Below are positions 1 to 7,997 of a DNA stretch of 64,000 nucleotides, piece by piece. The notes under the pieces were generated by a model that saw only the letters and a program-made list of their open reading frames with translations, searched no databases and was not told the origin of the DNA. The position numbers and the translations under genes are program-made. Position 1 is the stretch's first letter, and every line of letters begins with the position of its first letter. Source of the DNA: Chloroflexota bacterium (GTDB lineage Bacteria; Chloroflexota; Chloroflexia; Chloroflexales; Herpetosiphonaceae); the NCBI GenBank assembly GCA_020161265.1, contig JAIUOC010000003.1, positions 107,024-171,023 on the forward strand, given 5' to 3'.

Positions 1-1
1 C

Positions 2-787
<786 letters not shown>

Positions 788-856
788 ACTTCGGTTGCGA
801 TCCATTGCTCTCGCGGTAGTTCCCAATGACGTGAACTACCGCCTCTCTATCGCACG

Positions 857-1561
857 GTGCTAACCATGGCTCGACCTGCTGCTAGCAATCCTTTCTTTCG
901 CACATGGTCACCAACCATGGCCTATGTTCTAGGCTATTGGTGGGCTGATGGATATATGCGGATCAAATCAAACACTGGCGCTCATGAAATACAGATTGCC
1001 AGCAATGATCTTGATCATTTGCAACAACTAGCTGATTCAATCGGCACAAAATACTACTTGCGCAAAGTTCGCCAAGATGGACAAACCTTCACCGTCGAAT
1101 TTTGCAGCAAGGAAATGTATACCGATTTGTTAGCATTAGGCGGTACTCCGCGTAAATCACGCACGATCGGGATGCCTGATGTGCCAGATGAATATCTTCG
1201 TGATTTTGTTCGTGGAGTAATTGATGGTGATGGTACTGTTGGCTGGAATGGAGATCGGCCAATCGTGCATCTCTATTCGGGATCAACCTTGTTTTTAGGT
1301 GGATTTACCCAACGTATCGAATCATTGACTGGAATTCCAGCACCGAATTTAATTGCTAATCGCAATAATTATTACATCAAGTGGAGCACAATTCGTGCAA
1401 AGTGTTTAGCAATGTGGCTGTATCGTAACAATAATGGCCTGATGCTAGCACGTAAGGCTGCGATCGCGCAGCAATTTGAGCAATGGCAACCAAAGAAGTC
1501 GCCTGAGCGGGGAACAATTACCGAGAAGATGCGCTTGCATTTTGCAAACTATCTTCCTTAA
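857..1561 (+). CDS. Free-standing double-motif LAGLIDADG homing endonuclease (ATG at 866; GTG at 857 also possible)
   Basis: Two LAGLIDADG-type motifs ([10 protein letters not shown] and [11 protein letters not shown]); ORF fills the rpoB-rpoC spacer; not in frame with rpoB (stop at 787). Confidence 0.75.
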
Positions 1562-1578
1562 CCGAGGAGCGTTCAACC

Positions 1579-4500
1579 ATGCTCGAAATCAATGAATTCA
1601 ATGCAATTCGTATCAGTCTCGCTTCACCAGAAGATATCCTGAGCTGGTCGCACGGTGAAGTAACTAAACCCGAGACGATTAATTATAGAACTCTGCGTCC
1701 TGAACGAGATGGCTTGTTCTGTGAAAAAATCTTCGGACCTACGCGCGATTGGGAGTGCTATTGTGGCAAATACAAACGTGTGCGTTATAAAGGCATTGTG
1801 TGCGATAAATGTGGCGTAGAAGTCACCCGATCCAAAGTGCGACGTGATCGCATGGGTCATATCAAACTTGCCTCGCCTGTATCGCATATTTGGTTTGTTA
1901 AAGGCACACCATCGCGTTTGGGTTTACTTTTAGATATCTCACCACGTAATCTTGAGCGGGTGCTTTATTTTGCCTCGTATATTATCACCGATGTCGATGA
2001 TCTGGCATTGGGCAATGTACGTGAGCAAATGAAGACCGACTTTGGCGTGCGGCGCAAGGATCTCGAAGAAAAAATTATCGAACAACGTGGCGAAAAGGCA
2101 ACCCGTTTAAGCAAAGACCTTGCGGCGATGGATAATGCCATGGAAGGCACGTTGGAGCGAACGCATGAACAATTTGCCCGCCAACGCCAAGAAATCGAAG
2201 ATGAAGCCAATGCCTTGCGTGAACATCTCGAAGAACTGATCGGCATCGACGCACTAGCCGATGAAGATATTGTTTATCGTGGTACGGTGTTGCTCGAAGA
2301 AAACGAGCCAGTGCGTGAACGCACATTGGAACAACTCGAACAACTGATCGATCAAGAGCGCGAAAAGCTCGAACAACGCCGCGAATACGAGATTGAAAAC
2401 GTGCGTTTGTTGGCTGACGGCGAGCGTGATCAACGCCAATCGGTGGCCGATGCTGAGCAAGAACGGCTGACCACGGCCTTGATCAAACAGCTTGAAGATC
2501 TCAACAAAGAAGAAAAAGACAAGCTTGATCGCTTGGATGATATTCAGTTGCACCGGATTATTTCGGAAAACGAATATCGGATTCTGCGTGATCTAGCGCC
2601 CTACACCTTCAAGGCCGATATGGGTGCTGGCGCGGTGCGCGACATCGTATCGATGGTTGATCTCGACGAATTGTCGAATCAAATGCAAGCCGAAGTGCAA
2701 AGCTCATCGGGCCAACGCCGCAAAAAAGCCACCAAACGGCTGCGCGTGGTTGAAGCATTCCGCAAGAGCGGCAATCGTCCTGAATGGATGATTATGACCG
2801 TCTTGCCAGTGATTCCACCAGATTTGCGCCCGATGGTCCAGCTTGATGGCGGTCGGTTTGCGACCTCCGACTTGAACGACCTGTATCGACGGGTGATCAA
2901 TCGCAACAACCGGCTCAAGCGCTTGATGGAGTTGAACGCTCCTGAAATCATCGTGCGCAACGAAAAACGTATGTTGCAAGAAGCGGTTGATGCCTTGATC
3001 GACAACGGTCGCCGTGGCCGCCCAGTCAGTGGCAAGGGCAAGCATCGCCTTAAGAGCCTGAGCGATATGCTCAAAGGCAAGCAAGGCCGCTTCCGCCAAA
3101 ACCTCTTGGGTAAGCGGGTTGACTACTCAGGCCGTTCGGTGATTGTGGTCGGACCAACCCTGCAATTGCACCAATGTGGTTTGCCCAAGAAAATGGCCTT
3201 GGAATTGTTCAAGCCATTCGTCATGCGCCGCTTGGTCGATAAAGGCTTTGCCCACAACATCAAATCAGCCAAGCGCTTCGTTGAGCGGGTTCGCCCCGAA
3301 GTGTGGGATGTGCTCGAAGAAGTCATCAAAGACTACTTGGTATTGCTGAACCGTGCGCCTTCGCTGCACCGTTTGTCGATTCAAGCCTTTGAAGCCAAGC
3401 TGATCGAAGGCTCGGCGATTCAATTGCACCCCTTGGTGTGTGCCGCATTCAACGCCGACTTTGACGGCGACCAAATGGCTGTGCACGTACCATTGTCGCG
3501 CAAAGCCCAAGAAGAAGCTCGTCGCCGCATGATTTCAACCTACAACTTGTTGTCACCAGCCACTGGCGACCCAATTATTACGCCATCGCAAGACATCGTG
3601 TTGGGTTGTTTCTACCTGACCCAAGTTCGGCCTGGGGCTAAGGGTGGCGGCAAACGCTTTGGTTCAATCGACGAAGCCTTGTTGGCCTACACCAACGGCA
3701 TTGTGCATATTCAAGCACCTGTTTGGATTGTGATCGAAGATTACATTCTGCCCGGTAGCGATTTGCGCGATAAACCACTACCATCGTTGGATGGCGTTAC
3801 GCCACGGGTTTTGATTGAAACCAGCGTTGGGCGGATCATCTTCAACAATGCGTTGCGCTACCAAGGCGAGCCAAAAGCTGGTGAAAACGGCTATCGCTCA
3901 CCATTGCACTATCGCAACTTCTTGGTTGGTAAATCGGGCTTGAAAGCCTTGATCGCCGACTGCTATCGCTTCCACTCACAGCGCGAGAATATCATTGCTG
4001 AAGTGTATCAAGAATTAATTGAGCGCTTCGGCCCTGAGACCTCGGAAGAATCGCTGTTGCGTTTCTATGCCTCAGAACGGACGGCGCGTTTGGCCGACCG
4101 AATCAAGGCGTTGGGCTTCAAGCACGCCACCTTGGGCGGGATGACCTTCTCGGCTTCGGACGTAGAAGTGCCCGATACCAAAGATGCAATTGTGCAAGAA
4201 ACCTACAAGAAAGTGCAAGACATCGAAAAGATGCAACGCCGTGGTTTGATTACCGACGACGAGCGCTATCGTGAAGTGGTTACGGCCTGGCTTGATGCTA
4301 CCAACAAAATCAAAACCGAAGTCCAACGGACGTTGAATCCATTCGGGCCAGTCTCGATGATGTCAACCTCGGGTGCGCGTGGTAACGTCGAGCAAATTCG
4401 CCAGATGGCTGGGATGCGGGGTTTGACCACCGACCCAACTGGACGGATTATCGAATTGCCGATTACCGCCAACTTCCGCGAAGGCTTGAGCGTTATCGAA

Positions 4501-6210
4501 TACTTCATCTCGACCCACGGTGGTCGTAAAGGTTTGGCTGATACCGCCTTGCGGACAGCCGACGCTGGTTACTTGACCCGCCGTTTGGTGGACGTAGCCC
4601 AAGATGTGATCGTGACGATCGAAGATTGTGGCACAACCGAAGGCATGTGGATTCGCACCAGCCGCGATATTTTGGCCTCGGTCGAAGATCGGATCGTTGG
4701 CCGCGTGACGGTGGCTCCGGTCACTAATCCCGTGACTGGTGAAGTCATTTTCGATACCGATAGCGAAATCTTAGAAGACGATGGCAAGCACATTGCGAAT
4801 GTGCTGAAATCGTTGGACAAAGAGGCTCAAGCTGAATTTGGCATTTATGTCCGTTCGGTACTGACCTGTAACGCCGATTATGGCATTTGTCGCAAGTGCT
4901 ATGGCCGCAACCTTGCCACTGGCAAGATGGTCGAAATTGGCGAAGCTGTCGGGATTATCGCGGCGCAATCGATTGGTGAGCCAGGGACGCAGCTGACTCT
5001 GCGGACGTTCCACACTGGTGGTGTGGCAACTGATACCGACATCACCCAAGGTTTGCCACGGGTGCAAGAAATCTTCGAAGCACGGATTCCGAAAGGGAAA
5101 GCGGTGCTGGCCCAGATTGCTGGCCGTGTCCAGATTGTGCGCGAAGAAGAAGGCATTCGACGCTTGCGAATCGTCTCTGAGGAAGTTTATACCGACGAGC
5201 AAATGTTGCCCAAAGATTACCGTGTGGTGGTCAAAAATGGTGATGCAGTCGAAATTGGCAACCTCTTGGCCGAAAGCAATGTCGATGGCGATGGTCGTGC
5301 GCCATTGGTCGCAGGCCTAGCTGGCAACGTCTATGTTGACGATGATCGTTTGGTAATTCAAGCCAAAGATATCGAAGAACATGAAGAAGTGATTGCCCAC
5401 GCTGCTCGTTTGCGGGTCAAAGATGGCGATTTGGTGCAAGTGGGCCAACAAATGACCGAAGGCTCGTCTGACCCTCAAGAAATGCTGCAATTGCGTGGTC
5501 GCGAAGCAGTTCAAGAATACCTGACCAACGAAGCCCAAAAGGTCTATCGTTCGCAAGGTGTGGGGATCAACGATAAGCACATCGAAGTGATTGTGCGCCA
5601 AATGTTGCGGCGGGTACGCATCGAAGAGCCAGGCGATACTGAACTCTTGCCAGGCGAATTAGTCGAACTCAACGAACTCAATCGGATCAATGCTTCGATT
5701 GTGAGCCAAGGTGGTGACCCAGCGTTGGCAGTGCCAGTCTTGTTGGGGATTACCAAGGCCTCGTTGTCAACCGACTCGTTCTTGTCGGCGGCCTCGTTCC
5801 AAGAAACCACGCGCGTGTTGACCGAAGCTGCCGTCAATGGCAAGATCGACTACCTGCGTGGCTTGAAAGAAAATGTGGTTATCGGCAAGCTGATTCCAGC
5901 TGGTACGGGGATGGAGCAACGGCGCAAATTGGCTGAAGAAGCCGCCTTGCGGGTTGCCCAAATCACCAGCGCTCCAGTTGATCGCGAAACACCTGCGGCA
6001 ACACCAGCGCCAGCGGTGATGAGCGAACCCAAGCCCGCGCCACCACGCTCATTCGACGAAGCCTTGAATGCTGTCACCAACATCGACAGTGGTAATGGGC
6101 CAAAGGATGACTTGTTTGCTCAAGCTATGGCTCGCTTGCAAGCTGAAGAAGGTCGCAAACCTACCCTGAGCGAACTCTTAGGCACTGACGAAGACGAAGA
6201 AAACGTCTAA
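1579..6210 (+). CDS. rpoC: DNA-directed RNA polymerase beta-prime subunit (1543 aa) with a lineage-specific coiled-coil insertion
   Basis: Zn-finger CxxC..CxxC near N-terminus, NADFDGD catalytic motif, bridge-helix and trigger-loop regions; RBS GAGGAG upstream of the ATG. Confidence 0.97.
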
Positions 6211-6235: not shown

Positions 6236-6271
6236 AAAACACCGTTGGAGTCATTCCAACGGTGTTTTTGT
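6236..6271 (+). terminator. Intrinsic terminator after rpoC
   Basis: 14-bp perfect stem AAAACACCGTTGGA / TCCAACGGTGTTTT followed by TTTTTG. Confidence 0.7.
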
Positions 6272-6366
6272 GCTATTCCCCCAACCAGCGATCGCCTAGT
6301 ACACTAAAACCCTTGCTAGCTAGCTGCGTACCTAGCGCACAGCAATGCAGCGAAAGGAGCCAGAGC

Positions 6367-7179
6367 ATGTTTGATTCATGGCGCAGTTTAGGCTTTCATC
6401 TAGCGGCAGGGTTCTACAATAGCGTTTTATGCGTGATTATCGGCGGAATTCTGGGGTTTCTTACGCCGCCGCCATGGTCATTTGCGCTGCTTGGCATTGC
6501 TTGGCTGGGCATTAGCGCTTATTGGGCTGGCTATGGCGATGGTCGTATTAGCAATGGTTTTGCAGGCATGATCATCATCTGGCATGTGGTTATTTTGATG
6601 TTTGCAGGTATGGGCTGGCGCTATATGCGCTACACTGCTGGCAAAGAAACTATCAACAACGTTACTGCTGCCGAAATTCCCTATTATCCAAATGCAGCAA
6701 TTTTTTACTTGAATGATGCTGTGGTACAAACCAACTATGCCACAGTCCACAAAGTTGCCAGCAAAGATCGCAAAAGCTCACGCATTACGTATAGCTACTA
6801 CAGCCTTGCGCCACTGACCAATAGCGATTGGCAATATGGTGATCCGGTGCCTGCTTGGGCCGCTTGCAATGCCGATTACAACATCGCTTGCTACGATTGG
6901 GATGAGCCGATTACCAATGGTGCGTTGCCCGAAGAACTGTACCTCGATAAATACACCGTTGCCAAACTTACCAATCTTGCCACATATGATTATGCAGAGC
7001 TAAACAATGCTCCAATGCTAGAAGTTGGCGCAGGCTCAAATAGCTTTAATACCGCTAAACGCTGGCAATGGCTGTTTGTATGGGTCATCATGGTTTTGGT
7101 CTGGGCCGTGCCAATTGTGCTGATCGGCTGTGTGCGGTTTACCTGGCGTTGGTTGCGCAATTCAATAAGGAGTCTTTGA
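6367..7179 (+). CDS. Hypothetical integral membrane protein (paralog A of a tandem pair)
   Basis: ORF with RBS AAAGGAG before ATG 6367; several TM helices; shares PLT(N/S)xDWQ...PVPAWAxC block with the next gene. Confidence 0.6.
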   Translation: MFDSWRSLGFHLAAGFYNSVLCVIIGGILGFLTPPPWSFALLGIAWLGISAYWAGYGDGRISNGFAGMIIIWHVVILMFAGMGWRYMRYTAGKETINNVTAAEIPYYPNAAIFYLNDAVVQTNYATVHKVASKDRKSSRITYSYYSLAPLTNSDWQYGDPVPAWAACNADYNIACYDWDEPITNGALPEELYLDKYTVAKLTNLATYDYAELNNAPMLEVGAGSNSFNTAKRWQWLFVWVIMVLVWAVPIVLIGCVRFTWRWLRNSIRSL

Positions 7180-7997
7180 TGATCAATCAATGGTTAAACT
7201 TTGGGCGCACGTTGATAGTAGGGATACTGTTTGGTTTGTGGTGTGCGGTTCTGGGTGGGGCAATTGGTTTTTGGCTGGGCGAGTCAGCGTCCTATCTACT
7301 CGGTGTTATTGCTGGAATCGCCAGTATTTTCCTGTTTGTTCGCCTCAGCCATCGCTGGATCAACCATGCGCTATTGGGCGTGATCTGTTTGTTGAATATT
7401 GGCACGCTGATTGGCACAGCGATTGGTACAAGTAGCGAACGCCTGTATTATGGTCAAGTTCAAATTGACAACATTCGGGCTGAGCAAATTAGCCAACATC
7501 CCGAAACCATGATCTTCACGTTGGAGCAAGCAGTTGTGCAACGTGAATATGGTGTAACCTTTGCTTACACTACCAGCGATGCTCGCCGCTCAAGCACAAC
7601 CTCACATGCGATTAGCGTTGCGCCGCTGACTAGCCCCGATTGGCAGCCCGACCAGCCAGTTCCAGCATGGGCCGTCTGTGGCGGCTATTTCGAATATGAA
7701 TGTGAAGAGTGGAAGCAACCAATCAAGGCAGCGCTGATCTCAAAACCAACCAATCAAAATCCACAACAAACCGCGATCAGCAAAAACCTTGATACCCATG
7801 GCTATAGCGCAATCGAAAATGCCCCGCGTCTGTACGTTGGCAGCAGCGTTGAGAGCTTGATGGCCGACCACCGCTTTATTTGGCGGTCTACATGGTTGTT
7901 CGTTAATGGGATATGGGCTGTGCCATTTTTCATCTTTGTGGGAGCCGAGCTGATTTGGAATACGCTTAAGCAAATGTTTACAAAAAAGCCAAGCTAG
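7179..7997 (+). CDS. Hypothetical integral membrane protein (paralog B of a tandem pair)
   Basis: RBS AAGGAG 7 nt before ATG 7179 (MINQWLNF...); TM-rich N-terminus; conserved block PLTSPDWQPDQPVPAWAVCGG shared with upstream gene. Confidence 0.6.
   Translation: MINQWLNFGRTLIVGILFGLWCAVLGGAIGFWLGESASYLLGVIAGIASIFLFVRLSHRWINHALLGVICLLNIGTLIGTAIGTSSERLYYGQVQIDNIRAEQISQHPETMIFTLEQAVVQREYGVTFAYTTSDARRSSTTSHAISVAPLTSPDWQPDQPVPAWAVCGGYFEYECEEWKQPIKAALISKPTNQNPQQTAISKNLDTHGYSAIENAPRLYVGSSVESLMADHRFIWRSTWLFVNGIWAVPFFIFVGAELIWNTLKQMFTKKPS

Follow-up and report, generated by a model that had tools for sequence, protein, structure and literature searches.

A free-standing LAGLIDADG endonuclease gene in the rpoB-rpoC spacer of filamentous Chloroflexia: a candidate long-lived homing cassette

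We analyzed a 64,000-nt stretch of DNA from a Chloroflexota bacterium of the Herpetosiphonaceae (GenBank assembly GCA_020161265.1, contig JAIUOC010000003.1, positions 107,024 to 171,023 of the forward strand), hereafter called the window and used as the reference for all window positions, in which an open reading frame (ORF) for a LAGLIDADG protein lies between rpoB and rpoC, the genes for the beta and beta-prime subunits of RNA polymerase. The ORF is confined to the filamentous Chloroflexia (Herpetosiphonales and Chloroflexales) and is neither phylum-wide nor universally fixed. We give about an even chance to the reading that we favor, namely that it is a long-lived, still-competing, free-standing homing-endonuclease cassette, the main rival being a domesticated nuclease. 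This reading, in which the cassette is active or was so until recently, is favored because of the strict site specificity of the ORF, its autonomous and tightly repressed expression, its invariant catalytic center and its kinship with phage and free-standing endonucleases, as well as the presence and absence of the ORF in sister hosts and an exchange of alleles that is incongruent with the hosts.

Locus structure and identity of the encoded protein

The 3' end of rpoB fills window positions 1..787 (+), encodes the C-terminal 254 amino acids (aa) of the beta subunit and ends in a TAA stop at 785-787. It matches Pfam RNA_pol_Rpb2_6 (E=7e-67) and Rpb2_7 (E=3e-28), reaches the end of the profile and thus has a complete C-terminus, and is 99-100% identical in amino acids to Herpetosiphon species. 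The rpoC gene (1579..6210, +; 1543 aa, Pfam Rpb1 domains 1-5) begins with an ATG at 1579, leaving an rpoB-rpoC spacer of 791 nt. The part of this spacer that precedes the ORF (788..865, +; 78 nt) contains a hairpin at 813-842 and the hexamer TTGCGA at 795-800. The ORF itself (866..1561, +) has the same orientation as rpoB and rpoC and encodes 231 aa between an ATG at 866 and a TAA stop at 1559-1561; no paralogues of it were found in the 64-kb window. The Shine-Dalgarno (SD) sequence of rpoC, GAGGAG (1564..1569, +), lies 3 nt past the ORF stop and 9 nt ahead of the rpoC ATG.

A preceding reading of this DNA, made from the letters alone (hereafter the sequence-only reading), had described an ORF at 857..1561 (+) with two LAGLIDADG motifs. 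Both motifs are indeed present, as LGYWWADG at residues 22-29 (nt 929-952) and VRGVIDGDG at residues 115-123 (nt 1208-1234). The length of 234 aa given in that reading holds for the open frame from 857, which is real, but not for the protein: as homologues align from the Met at 866 and 20 of 22 loci have an ATG there, the start is almost certainly ATG 866 (MARPAAS..., 231 aa), and the upstream GTG at 857 is probably unused.

The ORF product matches Pfam PF14528 (LAGLIDADG_3) in two stretches (E=2e-10, 41.2 bits, cutoff 22.5), so that the profile search which the sequence-only reading had proposed gave a significant hit, and it also matches the phage family PHROG 4645, 'endonuclease' (E=5.7e-37). 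An AlphaFold2 (AF2) model based on a 30-sequence alignment (predicted local distance difference test, pLDDT, 92.3; predicted template modeling score, pTM, 0.90) presents two alpha-beta-beta-alpha-beta-beta-alpha domains and a C-terminal extension of ~45 aa. When this model was compared with the Protein Data Bank (PDB) by Foldseek, 98 matches were obtained at E<=1e-3, and each of the 50 top matches listed has the LAGLIDADG fold. The nearest folds (E 1e-9 to 1e-6, sequence identity 14-22%) are those of I-Tsp061I, intein endonuclease domains (PI-PfuI), bI3, I-AniI and I-DmoI. WhiA is a more distant structural match (the RNA polymerase-bound 8dy7_I with TMq 0.63, and also 3hyj), and tblastn gave distant matches to annotated phage and plasmid homing endonucleases. 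Pfam, PHROG, the AF2 model and Foldseek thus agree with the earlier designation as a free-standing LAGLIDADG endonuclease gene. Among the searches that returned nothing, phmmer found no match among PDB sequences, NCBIfam holds no family for the product, PADLOC reported no defense-system match, and Pfam gave LAGLIDADG_3 alone, with no Hint, zinc-finger, HTH_WhiA or LAGLIDADG_WhiA domain (PF02650, PF14527).

The first LAGLIDADG motif (920..952, +; residues 19-29) has its catalytic residue Asp28 at nt 947-949, where the model helix 16-28 ends, and the second (1202..1234, +; residues 113-123) has Asp122 at nt 1229-1231, the end of model helix 108-122. In the AF2 model, both catalytic Asp residues accordingly sit at the C-terminal ends of the LAGLIDADG helices. 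Asp28 is invariant in all 121 aligned family members, and Asp122 and Asp120 are each present in 120 of 121. Lys97, within GGTPRKS (codon at 1154..1156, +), is likewise invariant (121/121) and is a candidate lysine of the active-site periphery, which we take by analogy to correspond to K98 of I-CreI and K120 of I-DmoI. The C-terminal extension (1427..1558, +; residues 188-231), with model helices at 195-205 and 220-225 and the tail W-x-P-K-K-x-P...G-T-I-T..M-R..F..Y-L-P, is family-specific; it is kept across the clade of rpoB-rpoC loci (the rpoBC clade), is also found in free-standing relatives from other loci (P0125-P0144), and is 95-99% identical within Herpetosiphon whichever allele class (see below) is present. 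Taken together, sequence and model indicate a monomeric double-motif LAGLIDADG endonuclease that looks catalytically competent, from which we infer nuclease activity and a target site.

Occupied and empty junctions

The databases contain 334 homologues of the ORF product, and the top 120 of these have an identity of 60% or more and a length of about 231-235 aa. Named homologues come from Herpetosiphon, Herpetosiphonaceae, Chloroflexales, Roseiflexaceae and 'Chloroflexia', and the source databases label these proteins 'hypothetical protein'. An exhaustive profile search placed 10,915 proteins in the superfamily at E<=1e-10, within which the rpoBC clade is a single full-length cluster at 50% identity. 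The next relatives (~40-50% identity) are stand-alone genes in unrelated neighborhoods that share the C-terminal tail, some of them with N-terminal helix-turn-helix (HTH) extensions. Such extensions, of 50-130 aa and with repeated HTH or sigma-70 region-4-like modules, were seen in P0128, P0138, P0140, P0141, P0144 and P0347, all from outside rpoB-rpoC (Pfam PF04545, PF08281 and PF13384 in the modules of P0128 and P0347), and the gene for P0334 adjoins genes for HNH and Mrr-like nucleases on a Ktedonobacteraceae contig (L026).

All 27 occupied loci, from Herpetosiphonaceae, Chloroflexaceae/Oscillochloris and Roseiflexaceae-like hosts, carry the ORF in the rpoB-rpoC spacer. This includes 21 genome loci found via the protein and the loci L027, L108, L112, L113 and L114, which were added later. 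As loci that are found via the ORF cannot reveal empty sites, rpoC-anchored searches were added. Both rpoB and rpoC were present in 75 of 80 metagenome loci; the sole one with rpoB at the Chloroflexales level (85%) is occupied, and in the remaining 74, where rpoB identity does not exceed 79%, the spacer measures -17 to 240 nt and contains no ORF. Outgroup junctions were empty in 76 of 76 cases, including L110 (Thermomicrobiales), L109 and L115; L109 had been considered as an in-clade empty site and was rejected as a distant outgroup. In-clade rpoC-anchored look-ups yielded four occupied (L027, L108, L112, L113) and two empty (L107, L111) junctions, and in a tree of rpoB and rpoC the two empty ones nest inside the occupied radiation without being each other's closest relatives. 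Because it is absent from these two, we consider the ORF dispensable. The comparison of junctions proposed by the sequence-only reading therefore reveals empty sites both outside and inside the clade, and its premise that rpoB and rpoC are normally adjacent is borne out by 78 empty junctions with spacers of about -17 to 240 nt.

The closest comparison is that of two sister hosts, L111 (empty) and L114 (occupied), whose nucleotide identity is 92.6% in rpoB and 90% in rpoC. Homology between them stops at the rpoB stop codon and restarts ~10 nt ahead of the rpoC ATG. Between these points L111 has an 85-nt hairpin spacer and L114 a 145-nt spacer plus a 708-nt ORF, with no similarity to each other. 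We also considered that empty sites arose by precise excision, given that the sequence ahead of rpoC in empty sites is similar to that ahead of the ORF in occupied ones, and rejected this, as the likeness is due only to a shared SD (GGAGAG), the intergenic segments of L111 and L114 being otherwise non-homologous.

Two allele classes and replacement of the core

Over the rpoB and rpoC flanks of the ORF, the DNA identity between the window and H. aurantiacus DSM 785 (L006) amounts to 97-100%, with a flank dS (synonymous substitutions per synonymous site) of 0.06-0.12, and over the ORF center the identity of the same pair is just 50-60%. The divergence is concentrated in a core block (961..1356, +; codons ~32-164) with dS of 1.5-1.9 and dN (the nonsynonymous equivalent) of 0.37-0.45 (1.9 and 0.37, respectively, for the window versus H. 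aurantiacus), compared with dS of 0.07-0.18 in the ORF ends and flanks. Herpetosiphon genomes can thus be divided into type A (the window, H. llansteffanensis and one metagenome-assembled genome, MAG) and type B (H. aurantiacus, H. geysericola, H. giganteus and NSE202). All 103 of the 103 differences fixed between the types in the ORF fall within nt 961-1356; there are none up to nt 960 and two in rpoC (1755, 1761). The edges of the block are no more than ~30 nt away from YWWADG and NR..YIKWST.RAKCL, the motifs with the highest conservation.

The same dimorphism extends over the entire clade. Class I alleles, recognized by PRKSRT/RGV (PRKSRT/RGVI in the window, whose core block is a class I allele), are found in Roseiflexaceae-like hosts and Herpetosiphon type A, and class II alleles, recognized by PNKS[NH]V/RGF (PNKSHV/RGFI in type B), in Herpetosiphon type B, other Herpetosiphonaceae and all Chloroflexaceae/Oscillochloris loci. 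The core of the window is 61-67% identical in amino acids to class I alleles of other families as against 53-55% to the class II core of its congeners. Within Herpetosiphon, allele class does not track the host tree, although it should be noted that the incongruence with host genes rests on neighbor-joining and identity-based analyses. Other pairs point in the same direction: L011 and L015 have an rpoC dS of 0.17 but an ORF dS of 1.36, and L010 and L018 have near-identical cores with diverged ends. As judged from these sequence comparisons, recombination at the locus is recurrent, and allele cores have been transferred across species and, most parsimoniously, across families too. That this recombination is driven by the endonuclease is what we infer.

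A further observation concerns the least divergent 150-nt bins among L001-L006 (L006 coordinates 5701-6000 and 6601-6750), which differ by 0-3% as compared with the 3-8% typical among Herpetosiphon species. They correspond to the last ~230 nt of rpoB and to the last ~100 nt of the ORF with the start of rpoC, a few other bins being equally low. Functional constraint or recent homogenization could account for those beside the ORF.

Selection on the open reading frame

Within allele lineages, omega (dN/dS) is 0.05-0.14 and the dS of the ORF is similar to that of its flanks. Between the window and L002, for example, dS is 0.34 in the ORF and 0.27 in rpoC, and between L003 and L006 it is 0.19 and 0.20, respectively. 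About 25% of the residues of the product are invariant. Strong purifying selection thus acts on the protein, its catalytic center included.

Among 27 loci and 121 homologues, a single disrupted copy was found (L021, JAAUTF010000429.1), in which the ORF is split by a frameshift into two high-scoring segment pairs, in a MAG at 2.75x coverage. The contig, which is labeled as from a Candidatus Gracilibacteria MAG, has a Chloroflexales-type rpoB (83% identical to the window), the LAGLIDADG ORF and rpoC, and is probably mis-binned.

Promoter, hairpins and ribosome-binding sites

All 16 of the 16 occupied non-Herpetosiphon loci examined have a promoter of the form TTGAC[AG]-17 nt-TAnnnT, which occurs in none of the 78 empty junctions. 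In L007, L009, L011-L017, L019, L020, L027, L108 and L112-L114, a conserved -35 element, CGGTTGACA, is followed after 17 nt by TAnnnT, within the ~85 nt that precede the ORF start. Because the motif is absent from all of the empty junctions, we regard the promoter as belonging to the cassette. It is contained in an inverted repeat (ATCCGGT..CGG / CCG..ACCGGAT), as exemplified by L014:2120-2199, where it lies inside a long one, GTATATCCGGTAGCGG...CCGCAACCGGATATAC. This repeat could be a protein operator or could form an RNA hairpin in read-through transcripts.

Directly after the -10 box there is a hairpin, the 3' arm of which is the SD of the ORF. In 12 of 15 loci the SD takes part in pairing, and the stems differ in sequence and include G-U pairs. 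Hairpins were judged by folding each sequence individually, since MAFFT misaligns the divergent stems, and counting of covariation on the alignment was therefore dropped. The folding free energy (dG) is -14 to -32 kcal/mol in read-through RNA versus -2 to -11 kcal/mol from a +7 start, where the start ~7 nt after the -10 box is the assumed canonical position.

Herpetosiphon presents a different arrangement, with another hairpin (813-842 in the window) followed by a weak ribosome-binding site (RBS) for the ORF. The window hairpin has a perfect 10-bp stem (GCGGTAGTTC / GAACTACCGC; dG -22.6 kcal/mol), and the whole spacer is identical in H. aurantiacus L006. TTGCGA (795-800) is a degenerate remnant of the -35 element that is conserved in the other families. 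A promoter and terminator scan of the window spacer found no sigma-70-like promoter or terminator, the one promoter-like match, inside the ORF, being at chance level. As far as these signals can be read, the ORF in the window can only be expressed from rpoB read-through.

The sequence-only reading had also suggested that the ORF might be a polar barrier between beta and beta-prime expression. The organization of the locus gives no support to this, as the ORF is co-oriented with its neighbors, the distance between its stop and the rpoC ATG is -1 to 17 nt (22 loci), the rpoC SD is at the end of the ORF, and in most lineages an internal promoter is present upstream. In Chloroflexaceae-type loci, this SD is an AGGAG that overlaps the final codons of the ORF (..cca.aggagtga) and precedes the rpoC ATG by 5-6 nt. 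The features that we consider most informative, namely the allele swap in the window, the two ancient allele classes and the regulatory elements of the cassette, had gone unnoticed in the sequence-only reading.

Independently of the ORF, a strong hairpin just after the rpoB stop was observed in nearly every lineage, whether occupied or empty (window 813-842, L011:5848-6003, L015:5857-6003, L107:2916-3000, L111:1358-1442); in L010 and L018 it has a T-run and resembles a terminator. The sequence of this hairpin changes very rapidly, such that even L011 and L015, with their rpoC dS of 0.17, have unrelated ones. Possible identities are an attenuator, a processing site and a small mobile repeat of palindromic form.

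A model for persistence of the cassette

According to the model that we favor, the cassette would have entered the rpoB-rpoC spacer in an ancestor from which the filamentous Chloroflexia descend and would have stayed at exactly that site since. The enzyme would cut both strands at a specific site of a junction copy without the cassette or with a rival allele, and this break would be repaired by recombination against a cassette-bearing copy, with the extremely conserved rpoB and rpoC acting as homology arms, such that the cassette, or part of it, is copied in. Three circumstances may have allowed it to persist. The site would be safe, as the ORF runs in the direction of its neighbors and the RBS of rpoC is provided by, or adjoins, its 3' end; expression would be tightly limited; and two ancient allele classes would continue to exchange and compete. 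With regard to expression, most lineages would use a sigma-70-type promoter of their own inside the inverted repeat, with a 5' hairpin masking the RBS of the ORF in rpoB read-through RNA. In transcripts from the internal promoter this hairpin would be cut short and the RBS unmasked, which is the control logic of homing-endonuclease genes of phage T4. In Herpetosiphon, including the window, the promoter and masking elements have decayed.

As a more specific and, in our opinion, unlikely version of the last circumstance, the two classes would compete for the site by each cleaving empty or rival-occupied junctions, so that repair copies the core of the attacker. If true, this would be a chromosomal bacterial 'gene-drive-like' system that is hundreds of millions of years old, in which purifying selection is kept up by conflict of allele versus allele and repeated inter-species and inter-family recombination is seeded at rpoB/rpoC.

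Several results weigh against a homing cassette and should be considered when referring to this model. No co-conversion tracts or allele-linked flank polymorphisms were found, A/B-linked differences being absent from the 960 nt upstream and amounting to 2 over the 840 nt downstream, and in L111 versus L114 the flank identity is uniform up to the junction, with no co-conversion signature. The swap in Herpetosiphon is internal to the ORF rather than a replacement of the whole cassette. Omega remains at 0.05-0.14 where descent appears vertical, that is, within each Herpetosiphon allele class, and a fixed, purely selfish element would therefore need ongoing drive or competition. The classical homing cycle predicts many degenerate copies, and these are very rare here, L021 being the only one. 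The sequence-only reading had proposed looking for a target site conserved across the insertion point. Following the precedent of I-TevI, for which operator and homing site are related, we compared the promoter-spanning inverted repeat, as a guess of the homing site, with the rpoB/rpoC flanks and empty junctions, and the similarity was not above that of shuffled controls, so that no support for such a site was obtained. The unmasking of the RBS from an internal start depends on where transcription is assumed to start, and the rpoC-anchored look-ups within the clade cover a small sample (four occupied and two empty junctions).

Alternative explanations

Several of these observations would be accommodated if the ORF were a former homing endonuclease that has been co-opted as a nuclease or DNA-binding factor and is kept by organism-level selection, in the way of HO in yeast or of the inactive LAGLIDADG scaffold in WhiA, possibly as a regulator of rpoC/RNA polymerase expression, an RNA polymerase-associated factor or an enzyme of programmed DNA cleavage or repair. 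We regard such domestication as a serious possibility, though a less likely one than a homing cassette. The occupation of one locus across two orders, the low omega even in apparently vertical descent, the large share of invariant residues together with the conserved family-specific C-terminal extension, and the near absence of pseudogenes are all in line with it, as are the tight operon integration at the rpoC RBS, the conserved and possibly regulated promoter in an operator-like inverted repeat, and the occurrence of RNA polymerase-bound WhiA (8dy7_I) among the structural matches. However, the gene is dispensable, with two in-clade absences that are apart on the host tree, in one case in a lineage whose sister host is occupied. 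The catalytic Asp is invariant, unlike in WhiA or pure maturases, and no HTH_WhiA or other added domain is present. Deep allele dimorphism and cross-species allele replacement are unexpected for a housekeeping factor, the masking of the RBS suggests minimal expression, and Herpetosiphon retains a conserved ORF despite decay of the regulatory elements. A mixed state, which we consider rather improbable, would combine a selfish origin and continuing exchange with partial retention through cis-functions for rpoC (internal promoter, RBS and translational coupling), where disruptive mutations would be counter-selected via their effects on beta-prime expression. It is consistent with the rpoC SD lying within or right after the last ORF codons and the short stop-to-ATG distance in all loci, with the occurrence of the internal promoter with the cassette only, and with the low divergence (0-2%) of the bin that holds the last ~100 nt of the ORF and the start of rpoC among Herpetosiphon species. 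Constraint in cis, nonetheless, explains selection against nonsense and frameshift mutations and the 3' conservation but neither an omega of ~0.1 protein-wide nor the invariant catalytic residues; moreover, empty lineages express rpoC with a plain 85-nt spacer, and Herpetosiphon does so without the promoter.

We also considered whether the ORF could be a remnant of an intein or of an intron-encoded endonuclease that once resided in rpoB or rpoC. Intein endonuclease domains and an endonuclease from an archaeal intron are among the nearest folds of known structure, and the window ORF happens to share the frame of rpoB; the statement in the sequence-only reading that it is not in frame with rpoB is thus wrong for the window, where two stop codons (TAA 785-787 and TGA 827-829) separate the two in one reading frame. 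Its conclusion that the ORF is not an intein is nevertheless correct, as there is no Hint or splicing domain, the C-terminal domains of rpoB are complete and the ORF has a start codon of its own. In addition, the rpoB-ORF spacers of relatives are often not multiples of 3 (e.g., 77, 85 and 148 nt), and the nearest sequence relatives are free-standing. In agreement with the earlier view that no intron structure is evident, Rfam detected no intron or other RNA family at E<=1 in window 600-1800, save one chance snoRNA-like match of 18 bits. With uninterrupted flanking genes, no ribozyme and no Hint blocks, such an origin is effectively refuted and retains a negligible probability.

Other features of the operon and its surroundings

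The G+C content of ~0.53-0.56 in rpoB drops to 0.43-0.46 over the ORF, stays low through the first ~500 nt of rpoC and then recovers (window 750-2100). The rpoC gene of the window is unusually long (1543 aa), with Rpb1_1 (312 profile positions) stretched across residues 5-509 due to a charged, coiled-coil-like, lineage-specific insertion at roughly residues 130-400. This insertion diverges fast, Herpetosiphon and Chloroflexaceae being ~62% identical over the first 300 aa as compared with 81-92% over the first 130 aa. Several metagenome contigs have rpoC called as two ORFs that overlap or are separated by a short gap, e.g., 836+686 or 857+606 aa (L107:3001-7552, L109:3001-7866, L111:1443-4450, L115:3001-7420). 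These are probably assembly frameshift errors, although a genuine split of beta-prime is also possible; it should be noted that the rpoC protein search listed only matches of <900 aa and is therefore enriched for such cases. On the 3' side of rpoC, window 6262-7179 and 7068-7997 (+) contain tandem, partly overlapping ORFs of 305 and 309 aa that look like paralogous membrane proteins with common motifs, e.g., S(L/V)APLT(N/S)(S/P)DWQ...PVPAWA.C.

Significance and comparison with known systems

Homing endonuclease genes are mainly known from phages, organelles, introns and inteins, and theory expects them to decay once fixed. Here, an intact gene at one site of the most conserved operon shows strong constraint together with signs of exchange. 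If the enzyme is active, this would provide a natural system for studying long-term persistence of a selfish nuclease in cellular chromosomes, and the locus is a possible source of recombination beside rpoB and rpoC, which serve as phylogenetic markers. For engineering, the family offers >300 natural variants, two specificity-candidate classes and a compact meganuclease scaffold of 231 aa, and for annotation, it concerns proteins that carry the label 'hypothetical protein' throughout Chloroflexia. Our literature search found no paper that describes a LAGLIDADG gene at the rpoB-rpoC junction or from Herpetosiphon. The superfamily and the proposed mechanism are already known; what is new is the setting in a bacterial chromosome and in the core RNA polymerase operon, the persistence over two orders, the two ancient classes and the phage-like control.

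The most similar known arrangement is that of the free-standing seg and mob genes of T4-like phages, which spread by intronless homing. As in our case, these genes are patchily distributed, lie between conserved essential genes, are co-oriented within a host transcription unit, and have a promoter of their own in or near an RBS-sequestering hairpin, with an operator-like repeat over the promoter (PMC2988022). In particular, I-TevI, I-TevII, I-TevIII, segB of T4 and mobE of Aeh1 combine their own promoter by an RBS-sequestering hairpin with operators that overlap promoters (PMC2988022). The T4-like enzymes are, however, GIY-YIG or HNH nucleases of phage, whereas the ORF described here encodes a predicted LAGLIDADG nuclease and lies in a cellular chromosome. 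It also differs in being ancient and retained order-wide, with very few decayed copies and without co-conversion or flank-immunity polymorphisms.

The yeast WHO and HO genes are also free-standing LAGLIDADG-type genes beside a highly conserved and highly expressed housekeeping gene, with divergent alleles at one locus (PMC7282813). They are intein-derived and have zinc fingers; WHO homing replaces the 3' end of FBA1 and builds clusters of genes and pseudogenes, and HO is a domesticated derivative that retains catalytic activity (PMC7282813). In contrast, the rpoB-rpoC ORF has neither Hint nor zinc-finger domains, and tblastn of the occupied loci found no duplicated rpoB or rpoC fragments in the spacers.

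In its fold, the product resembles I-Tsp061I, I-DmoI and the PI-PfuI and PI-SceI domains (Foldseek 4e-9 to 1e-6), which are of similar size and have two domains with two LAGLIDADG helices that end in an acidic residue. It differs from these by its ~45-aa C-terminal extension, by having no intron or intein, and by residing in a bacterial rather than an archaeal or organellar host. WhiA (DUF199), a regulator of sporulation and transcription and a structural match, is likewise a bacterial LAGLIDADG scaffold functionally linked to RNA polymerase, but its catalytic residues are gone and an HTH domain is present at its C-terminus, whereas the ORF product keeps both Asp residues and has no WhiA match in Pfam.

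Finally, with respect to the two allele classes, Goodrich-Blair and Shub reportedly described in 1996 that I-HmuI and I-HmuII of the Bacillus phages SPO1 and SP82 are endonucleases that compete for the same site. There, too, two diverged endonuclease alleles are found at one site in related genomes, and each might in principle attack the allele occupied by the other, which could explain replacement at an occupied site. I-HmuI and I-HmuII are nicking enzymes of the HNH type, from group I introns within polymerase genes of phages, and allele-specific cleavage by the rpoB-rpoC enzyme is a conjecture. By analogy, and as conjecturally, competition between the classes in the manner of I-HmuI and I-HmuII would reconcile the constraint on this gene with its being selfish.

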